This document shows positions 1-410 of a DNA stretch of 410 nt, piece by piece. Each line of letters begins with the position of its first letter. Positions within the stretch are counted from its first letter, which is position 1. Location of the stretch: the NCBI RefSeq assembly GCF_003334335.1, contig NZ_QOWQ01000196.1. The stretch is one strand, 5' to 3'. Both the position numbers and the translations under genes were made by a program. The notes below the pieces were generated by a model, which did not search any database, was not told the DNA's origin, and was given only the letters and a program-made list of their open reading frames with translations. This DNA comes from Escherichia coli. Its GTDB lineage: Bacteria > Pseudomonadota > Gammaproteobacteria > Enterobacterales > Enterobacteriaceae.

Positions 1-401
1 GCAAGCACCTCATTTTTTGTTGGGGTGCTTTTTTTCAATTCAGCGATATAGCACTCCAGTTTTTCAATGCGTGATTCGATATCATCTTTTTCTGACAGTA
101 TCGTGTTATATGCATTGTTAATTTGTATGGTATACCGATCTTCGGAACAAAGGCACTTTTCCTGTGACTGTTCATCCCCTTCACATAACCCGGCAGCAAT
201 ATCCATGAAAAACTGCTTCGCCTTCTTTTTCGCCTCAGCTTCGTAAAACTCCAGCGGGGCACCTTCAACACGATCAAGATCAATCACCACATTTGGCAAC
301 AACAGTGACGTATACCCACCCGTTTCCAGCGCTACAGTAACAGTAATCTTATCCGGGTAATTATTTATCCCTTTAACAACCAGTTCGTATTGTTTATTCA
401 T
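1..401 (-). CDS. Hypothetical protein, 5' portion only (start codon in window, 3' end beyond left edge). Visible product (133 aa): MNKQYELVVKGINNYPDKITVTVALETGGYTSLLLPNVVIDLDRVEGAPLEFYEAEAKKKAKQFFMDIAAGLCEGDEQSQEKCLCSEDRYTIQINNAYNTILSEKDDIESRIEKLECYIAELKKSTPTKNEVL...
   Basis: Manual reverse-complement translation: ATG at plus coordinates 401..399, then 133 sense codons with no stop down to position 3 (2 nt left over at 1..2). An in-frame TAG at 405..407 fixes this ATG as the first possible start. An open frame this long in AT-leaning DNA is unlikely by chance. The protein has a non-random make-up: alternating hydrophobic beta-like segments, an amphipathic Lys/Ala helix and a heptad-spaced Ile/Leu helix. 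Codon choice (CTG, CCG, GCG, AAA) looks like a Gram-negative enteric-type gene, but that is impression only. Not in the ORF track, consistent with the track needing an in-window stop. Confidence 0.78.
   Translation of the reverse strand, partial: MNKQYELVVKGINNYPDKITVTVALETGGYTSLLLPNVVIDLDRVEGAPLEFYEAEAKKKAKQFFMDIAAGLCEGDEQSQEKCLCSEDRYTIQINNAYNTILSEKDDIESRIEKLECYIAELKKSTPTKNEVL
5..35 (+). terminator. Intrinsic-terminator-like hairpin plus T-tract on the plus strand, embedded in the minus-strand coding region
   Basis: Plus-strand stem 5-11 (gcacctc) pairs with 22-28 (ggggtgc): 6 Watson-Crick pairs and one G-U wobble. Loop 12-21 (attttttgtt), followed immediately by T7 at 29-35. The loop is larger than in typical strong terminators (8 nt if a12:t21 also pair), so stability is only moderate. 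The orientation would terminate rightward transcripts entering from the left edge. Confidence 0.25.
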
Positions 402-407
402 CGTCTA

Positions 408-410
408 CTC
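408..410 (-). promoter_or_regulatory. Possible partial Shine-Dalgarno element (GAG) upstream of the ATG; the rest of any ribosome-binding site would lie outside the window
   Basis: Minus-strand sequence reads GAGTAGACG-ATG. The GAG is separated from the ATG by 6 nt, a spacing compatible with an SD core. Only 9 nt of upstream sequence is visible, so a complete GGAG/AGGAG cannot be confirmed. Confidence 0.25.

Follow-up and report, generated by a model that had tools for sequence, protein, structure and literature searches.

The 410-nt stretch of DNA analysed here (the window) very probably carries the 5' two thirds of a DUF1327/YdfR gene from the Stx-phage-like late region of a lambdoid prophage, in E. 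coli or a very close relative. The gene appears to be a recombinant form and to lie in a low-GC mosaic insert of the lysis cassette. The window is ordinary prophage DNA, and its low G+C content is real yet unremarkable; the family and where it lies are already known, as is the fact that phage accessory genes are lower in GC. The compositional flag raised in the preliminary description was correct for prophage DNA, and any annotation pipeline would see the same from the holin and DUF1327 matches. DUF1327/YdfR genes are very common in prophages of E. coli, Stx phages among them.

The window lies in a prophage lysis cassette

The sole long open frame in the window is a minus-strand frame of 133 codons (Table 1). 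Its product matches the Pfam family DUF1327 (PF07041; E 1.8e-34, score 118.3, query residues 1-80 against model positions 1-80 of 93). It also matches PHROGs 2091, 1085, 2735 and 406, all function-unknown, at E 1e-36 to 1e-62 (best 1.1e-62), and a fifth PHROG family at 5.7e-17. Three further ORFs, two on the plus strand (34 and 59 aa) and one of 82 aa in a different minus-strand frame, were rejected as overlapping shadows of the Pfam-matching ORF. From the gene order in related loci, the rightmost six bases of the window are taken as the end of the gene for the class II holin S, namely its last codon and stop. In these loci the holin is a 71-aa class II (S21-type) protein, which ends ...AARGE-stop at the corresponding position.

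The order S - DUF1327 - R - Rz was found in E. coli EC2 (locus L001), CP55_Sichuan (L002) and SCU-171, in phage PhiR12_1 (L003), in the Qin prophage of E. coli K-12 (L004; essQ - ydfR - rrrQ - rzpQ) and in an ENA metagenome contig (L010). In the late direction the genes run Q, SASA-family esterase, DUF1378, DUF826, class II holin S, DUF1327/YdfR, lysozyme R, Rz and terminase, the position of antiterminator Q being taken from PhiR12_1 alone among the EC2, CP55_Sichuan, SCU-171 and PhiR12_1 stretches. The related loci thus bear phage genes, namely Q, holin, lysozyme, Rz, terminase and portal. The holin-endolysin setting is seen from the holin side in the window itself and from the endolysin side in the related loci.

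Table 1 Coordinates of features in the window and in related loci.
Feature	Sequence	Position	Strand	Evidence or remark
Holin last codon and stop	window	405..410	minus	GAG (Glu) at 410-408, TAG at 407-405; read from sequence
Spacer, holin stop to next start	window	402-404	minus	3 nt
DUF1327/YdfR-family gene	window	1..401	minus	ATG at 401-399; codons 1-133, stop-free, exits window at position 1; six-frame translation
Conserved DUF1327 domain (aa 1-80)	window	162..401	minus	Pfam match; bears DRVEGAxLEFYEAEA motif
Linker module A, short allele …EKCLCSEDRYTIQINNAYNTIL	window	99..161	minus	DNA alignment with L001/L003 (same allele) and L002 (long); protein alignment
Conserved core SEKDDIESRIEKLE	window	57..98	minus	kept in DNA of L001, L002 and window, and in protein alignment
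Module B start, long allele CYIAELKKSTPTKNEVLA…	window	1..56	minus	L002/L010 type, not L001/L003 type
Terminator-like hairpin	window	3..35	plus	10-pair stem, 8-nt loop, then TTTTT; terminator scan and RNA fold; antisense, inside the coding sequence of the gene
Same hairpin	L010	784-811	minus	143 nt past stop of convergent 86-aa ORF
Convergent 86-aa ORF	L010	954-1214	minus	overlaps 3' end of DUF1327 gene
Convergent 86-aa ORF	L001	5631-5891	plus	overlaps 3' end of DUF1327 gene
Convergent 86-aa ORF	L003	5631-5891	plus	overlaps 3' end of DUF1327 gene
KRRDEQFAAF-coding hairpin	L010	about 903-937	minus	opposite strand AAAACGCCGCGA-loop-TCGCGGCGTTTTT
KRRDEQFAAF-coding hairpin	L001	about 5893-5930	plus	opposite strand AAAACGCCGCGA-loop-TCGCGGCGTTTTT
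K-12 Qin ydfR	L004	15055-15366		overlaps rrrQ start by 4 nt
DUF1327/YdfR gene, RefSeq/PGAP pseudogene	L001	6103-6348		'incomplete; missing C-terminus'
DUF1327/YdfR gene, RefSeq/PGAP pseudogene	L002	4102-4443		'incomplete; missing C-terminus'
DUF1327/YdfR gene, RefSeq/PGAP pseudogene	L012	2629-2874		'incomplete; missing C-terminus'

Of 5426 complete E. coli genomes, 2662 have Megablast matches, each at 1-9 places and nearly always on the chromosome; matches covering 80% or more of the window were present in 185 of the 5426. This distribution, partial and variable in copy number, indicates accessory DNA rather than syntenic core. The phage collection contains 90 matching records, 63 of them Stx-converting phages. 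Plasmid matches were few and partial. All near-identical DNA matches lie either within lambdoid lysis cassettes of E. coli chromosomes or in the genomes of E. coli phages and Stx-converting phages. The suggestion of the preliminary description, that a lower GC in an enteric host would fit prophage or island DNA, is therefore borne out by the lambdoid lysis-cassette matches and by the accessory distribution.

Base composition and codon usage

Exact counting over the whole window gave A102, C105, G66 and T137, or 171/410 (41.7%) G+C, identical to the earlier hand count. The 100-nt GC profile spans 36 to 49%. As a baseline we used 484 non-overlapping 410-nt windows from four 50-kb stretches of the E. 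coli K-12 core; 200 kb of K-12 core has 51.5% GC overall. The baseline windows have a mean of 51.6% and a standard deviation of 4.1%, which places the studied window at z = -2.4 relative to K-12, the baseline used here in place of the source genome. An equally low GC is found in 3.3% of the K-12 core windows (2.6% when overlapping windows are used) and in 6.2% of the 410-nt windows of the related phage PhiR12_1 (first 50 kb, 51.2% GC). The low GC is genuine and moderately unusual. Since about 3% of core windows are equally low, GC alone is weak evidence and not decisive, as the preliminary description had itself cautioned, and by this measure alone the region would have escaped identification.

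The comparison of GC, GC3 and codon adaptation that had been proposed as a check was carried out against K-12. The ORF has 41.1% GC. The same 133-residue peptide encoded with average K-12 codon frequencies would have 44.9%, compared with 51.5% in the core samples. Amino-acid composition thus explains about two thirds of the deficit, the peptide being rich in Lys, Glu, Asn, Ile and Asp, which have AT-rich codons. The remaining deficit is synonymous and appears as a low GC3 of 42.1% in the ORF. In 107 long K-12 ORFs GC3 is 57.4 ± 4.8%, which places the window ORF at z = -3.2, and 0.9% of these reference ORFs have so low a value. The codon-adaptation-like score of 0.66 is inside the host range (0.71 ± 0.05 in K-12, z = -0.9). 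The preliminary description had called the CTG, CCG and GCG preferences enterobacterial, with no strand named. On the minus strand, and only there, these three codons are indeed host-like (CTG 6/13 of Leu, CCG 2/4 of Pro and GCG 3/9 of Ala codons; K-12 fractions 0.53, 0.56 and 0.36). The remark is thus partly right, as ATA (3/10 of Ile codons), GGG (4/6 of Gly) and TCA (4/6 of Ser), all rare in K-12, are over-used relative to K-12 fractions of 0.05, 0.14 and 0.12.

These values bear on the possibility that the low G+C is a mere by-product of a charged, Lys/Glu/Asn-rich and partly coiled-coil protein and carries no signal of separate origin. The large share of the deficit that amino-acid composition supplies, together with the unexceptional codon-adaptation-like score, is what such an explanation predicts. 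In short windows amino-acid composition can supply much of a GC deficit, so GC3 is the better test, and here GC3 is below that of 99% of the long K-12 ORFs and far under that of the neighbouring holin (67.6%) and lysozyme (58.8%) genes. The convergent ORF and the non-coding rest of the S-R insert are equally low, at 42-44%, and the insert is present in some related cassettes and absent from others. We therefore regard a purely amino-acid-driven deficit as doubtful. The earlier suggestion of horizontally acquired DNA holds, with two qualifications: most of the deficit stems from the peptide, and the contrast is as much with the neighbouring prophage genes as with the host.

A further possibility is that the source organism has about 42% GC genome-wide, so that the value of the window is native and no sign of transfer. 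The exact combination of modules in the window occurs in no complete E. coli genome, a point in favour of this reading. Against this, 357 consecutive nt of the window recur in E. coli chromosomes at 100% identity, and a contig whose holin and lysozyme are of the same E. coli type matches the full 410 nt at 99.3%. The homologues are almost all from Escherichia, Shigella or Salmonella. Genomes of these genera have about 50-52% GC, in line with the K-12 core. A native low GC is accordingly highly improbable. Neither of the two observations that the preliminary description had named as overturning its suggestion was made: the host has about 51% GC, and the region is not part of a conserved core. 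Phage flanks, variable presence and copy number, and the GC and GC3 z values against the K-12 baseline together mark the window as prophage or horizontally acquired DNA.

The low GC marks a discrete insert between S and R

The interval between S and R was compared with its flanking genes. In PhiR12_1 the interval (832 bp) has 43.1% GC, with 42.0% in the DUF1327 gene and 41.8% in the small convergent ORF, compared with 54.6% in S and 55.1% in R. The metagenome contig shows the same pattern (S 53.7%, interval 42.6%, R 54.2%), and the interval has 43.0% in EC2 (832 bp) and 44.3% in CP55_Sichuan (767 bp). The insert thus measures 0.77-0.83 kb and has about 43-44% GC compared with about 54-55% in S and R. 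In EC2 the 100-nt profile goes from 52-59% to 36-48% and back to 52-59%, with the steps at gene borders. In the DLP12 prophage of K-12 essD directly abuts rrrD, with neither a DUF1327 gene nor an insert; its holin is identical to the window-type holin at 59 of 72 residues. The GC of S and R, together with the insert-free cassette of DLP12, indicates that the low-GC stretch is an optional mosaic insert within the prophage. The S-R piece would have been acquired separately, as a mosaic insert inside the prophage. The GC contrast thus runs against the neighbouring phage genes as much as against the host, and marks a discrete insert in the lysis cassette.

The gene is a mosaic of modules

Long family members are built from the DUF1327 domain, a linker module (short or long), the core SEKDDIESRIEKLE, a second module (short or long) and the tail KRRDEQFAAFYDYCIEVTRRNFVKAFEESKSLQ. 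The core is common to all long family members, lies between the two variable modules and is a likely crossover site. The long allele of module A in other members (…EKRPIILEAQDVLITYRGKLPGIITGSLKTP…) is longer than, and unrelated to, the short allele in the window. Four forms can be distinguished by length: 169 aa (clusters P0005 and P0007, 446 and 68 members), 183 aa (P0111, 681 members), 211 aa (P0024, 644 members) and 197 aa (P0001 and P0002, 8 and 1 members). The gene in the window is of the 197-aa type, with a short first (linker) module and a long second module.

DNA alignments show where the types part. Positions 54-410 of the window are 100% identical to the EC2 type. Megablast stops at position 54, and a sensitive alignment continues to position 29 with 9 mismatches, all in 29-53; left of position 29 the EC2 type has no homology. 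The CP55_Sichuan type matches positions 1-98 and 166-410, and an unrelated sequence that is 42 nt longer replaces 99-165. Both CP55_Sichuan and the metagenome contig align from position 1. The contig bears a 197-aa protein of cluster P0001 and is identical to the window at 99.3% of all 410 nt, the differences being one base in the ORF (Glu6 in the window against Lys6) and two changes in the spacer. Since it is seen independently in this contig, the 197-aa arrangement is real. Positions 1-170, searched against the 5426 complete E. coli genomes, gave no full-length match; one match, in SCU-171 (84% coverage, 93.7% identity), lies in the same S - DUF1327 - R cassette. An exact-pattern scan of IMG/VR for the module junction of the window gave no match. 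Judged by these searches, the 197-aa combination of modules seems rare, and it is a minor curiosity.

The DUF1327/YdfR family and its predicted structure

We collected 205 homologues, and PF07041 was found in all 120 among the matches listed. Columns R44, E46, L50-A55, A57, F65, L72 and E74 (window-protein numbering) are invariant over 32-35 aligned members that include K-12 YdfR and the window protein; within the motif the invariant columns are R44, E46, L50, E51, F52, Y53, E54, A55 and A57. An NCBIfam profile search with the window protein matched no family. The sole PADLOC match, to Csm5 (E 0.0066, 14 bits), was weak and non-significant, and a reading as a defence gene was rejected.

Searches of the PDB by sequence and by family profile gave nothing below E 0.17 and hence no solved relative. 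An AlphaFold2 model was built on an alignment of 32 homologues. The proteins P0003, P0006 and P0012, in which most of the DUF1327 domain is duplicated internally and which upset a first alignment, were left out. The mean pLDDT is 57.8, and only the N-terminal sheet-plus-helix domain (residues 5-73) is usable. It is predicted to consist of strands 6-14, 18-27 and 38-43 and a helix at 50-73, with mean pLDDT of 64-87 in blocks of 10 residues over residues 1-70. Past this domain the model gives a disordered linker and then low-confidence helices. Foldseek found no meaningful solved fold for the model in the PDB; its matches to PX domains of SNX5 and to tyrosine phosphatases (best E 0.024, TM 0.29 or lower) were judged meaningless.

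Some database entries deviate from the usual architecture. In P0085 a class II holin reads through into DUF1327 (PF04971 and PF07041), and in P0083 a KilAC/ANT-type antirepressor segment (PF03374) comes after DUF1327. These may be frameshifts, assembly errors or real fusions. RefSeq/PGAP calls three DUF1327/YdfR genes of related loci pseudogenes (Table 1); for the near-identical sequence in PhiR12_1 the phage record annotates an intact 169-aa ORF. The pseudogene calls are probably an annotation artefact of the variable C-terminal modules.

Antisense hairpins and a convergent ORF

A terminator scan of the window gave one site against 0.3 expected. The hairpin, at plus-strand positions 3-30 and followed by the T-run, has a folding energy of -15.5 kcal/mol (z = -4.5), and 0/200 shuffled sequences were as stable. 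It is present only in the long allele of module B, and it recurs in the metagenome contig. In Rfam the hairpin resembled the terminator end of GcvB only below threshold (17 bits compared with a gathering score of 42), which was judged to be chance.

The convergent 86-aa ORF matches phrog_2572 (E 3.6e-50), a family of unknown function. The phage record calls it a 'DUF1823 containing protein', and the match to Pfam DUF1823 is non-significant (E 0.042). A second hairpin, GC-rich and with a T-run, lies about 20 nt after the stop of this ORF and before the hairpin found in the window. On the other strand the same DNA encodes KRRDEQFAAF. As read from the sequence, this stretch may be both coding sequence and a predicted antisense terminator.

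Expression and possible function

In related loci the DUF1327 gene starts 3-4 nt past the holin stop, and in the window 3 nt. A start so close behind S, with R following, suggests co-transcription with the lysis genes. The gene would then be transcribed together with them from the Q-antiterminated late promoter, and it would probably be translated in tandem with the holin.

The literature on DUF1327 yielded one incidental mention. The sole experimental lead is a recent study of K-12 YdfR (PMC13232886, RNA Biol 2026). Residues 1-72 came out of a two-hybrid screen as interacting with RNase E 1-597, and YdfR was placed, with SlyX, YegJ and ThrB, in group II of the binders of the RNase E N-terminal domain. 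Strep-YdfR co-purifies Rne 1-598 and DNase-resistant nucleic acid, although the authors could not exclude a contaminant as the retainer of RNA. Overexpression of ydfR changed few transcripts and left growth unimpaired. Since K-12 ydfR is a short allele of 103 aa, these experiments concern a truncated form of the family, 39% identical to the window protein, and RNase E binding would carry over to the window allele by homology. We tentatively suggest that the window protein may be a late cytoplasmic protein. Its N-terminal domain would bind the catalytic half of RNase E and possibly RNA, and its helical C-terminal part would mediate self-association; both parts together would modulate RNA turnover around lysis.

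The main rival to this proposal is that the gene product is a component of the lysis cassette, such as a factor that regulates holin timing or the release of endolysin, and not an RNase E or RNA factor. The location speaks for it: the gene is invariably found between S and R, immediately behind the holin stop, and the database contains the holin-DUF1327 fusion P0085. On the other hand, the sequence of the window protein shows neither a transmembrane segment nor a signal peptide, and the related DLP12 cassette lyses without a DUF1327 gene, as does that of phage 21. As cited in PMC13232886, ydfR is among the envelope-integrity mutants of a genome-wide screen (ref. 79, Paradis-Bleau 2014), which would suit a lysis component; the unimpaired growth on ydfR overexpression argues against one. 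On balance we consider a role in lysis unlikely, and tentatively retain the proposal of an RNase E-binding protein made around lysis.

A broader version of this proposal is speculative, and its full extent is quite unlikely to hold. DUF1327 might be a widespread prophage factor that binds the RNase E catalytic domain, and also RNA, and is made with the lysis proteins. The DNA for its two C-terminal modules also bears, on the antisense strand, terminator-like hairpins for the convergent phrog_2572 gene, and the shuffling of these modules might reflect selection on two overlapping functions. If so, the two genes of the S-R insert would form a compact accessory unit for tuning either RNA decay in the host or the expression of prophage genes. 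The RNase E-binding report gives DUF1327/YdfR a testable lead.

Comparison with known systems

Morons, in the sense of Hendrix and Juhala, are extra genes of lambdoid phages with atypical GC that are inserted between conserved genes. The insert resembles them in having a GC unlike that of both neighbours (43-44% compared with 54-55%) and in being present or absent between otherwise similar cassettes, as DLP12 illustrates. It differs in that neither promoter nor terminator could be detected for the DUF1327 gene itself, which appears to be coupled to the holin. Consensus scans gave no sigma-70-like site, either in the window or, in the metagenome contig, upstream of the gene. They likewise gave no terminator for the DUF1327 gene; terminator-like hairpins are on the opposite strand, downstream of the adjacent convergent 86-aa ORF, which is outside the window and is the only one of the two genes to have them. 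Because neither a promoter nor a terminator of its own was found, we do not apply the moron label in its strict sense.

Close relatives of the window locus are found in Stx-converting and PhiR12-type phages, which share its S - DUF1327 - R - Rz order. The genes for their DUF1327 proteins of 169, 183 and 211 aa have 96-100% nucleotide identity to positions 54-410 of the window. The window differs from these forms by pairing a short linker, as in the 169-aa form, with the long second module known from the 211-aa form.

YdfR of the K-12 Qin prophage (P76160) has the same Pfam domain and keeps the DRVEGAxLEFYEAEA motif, its identity to the window protein extending over 99 aa. As in the window-type cassette, ydfR lies between a class II holin gene, essQ, and a lysozyme gene, rrrQ, and its GC is also low (43.6%). 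K-12 YdfR ends soon past the domain. The 197-aa form of the window type, in contrast, continues through the linker into a conserved core of coiled-coil-like character and then a helical extension at the C-terminus.
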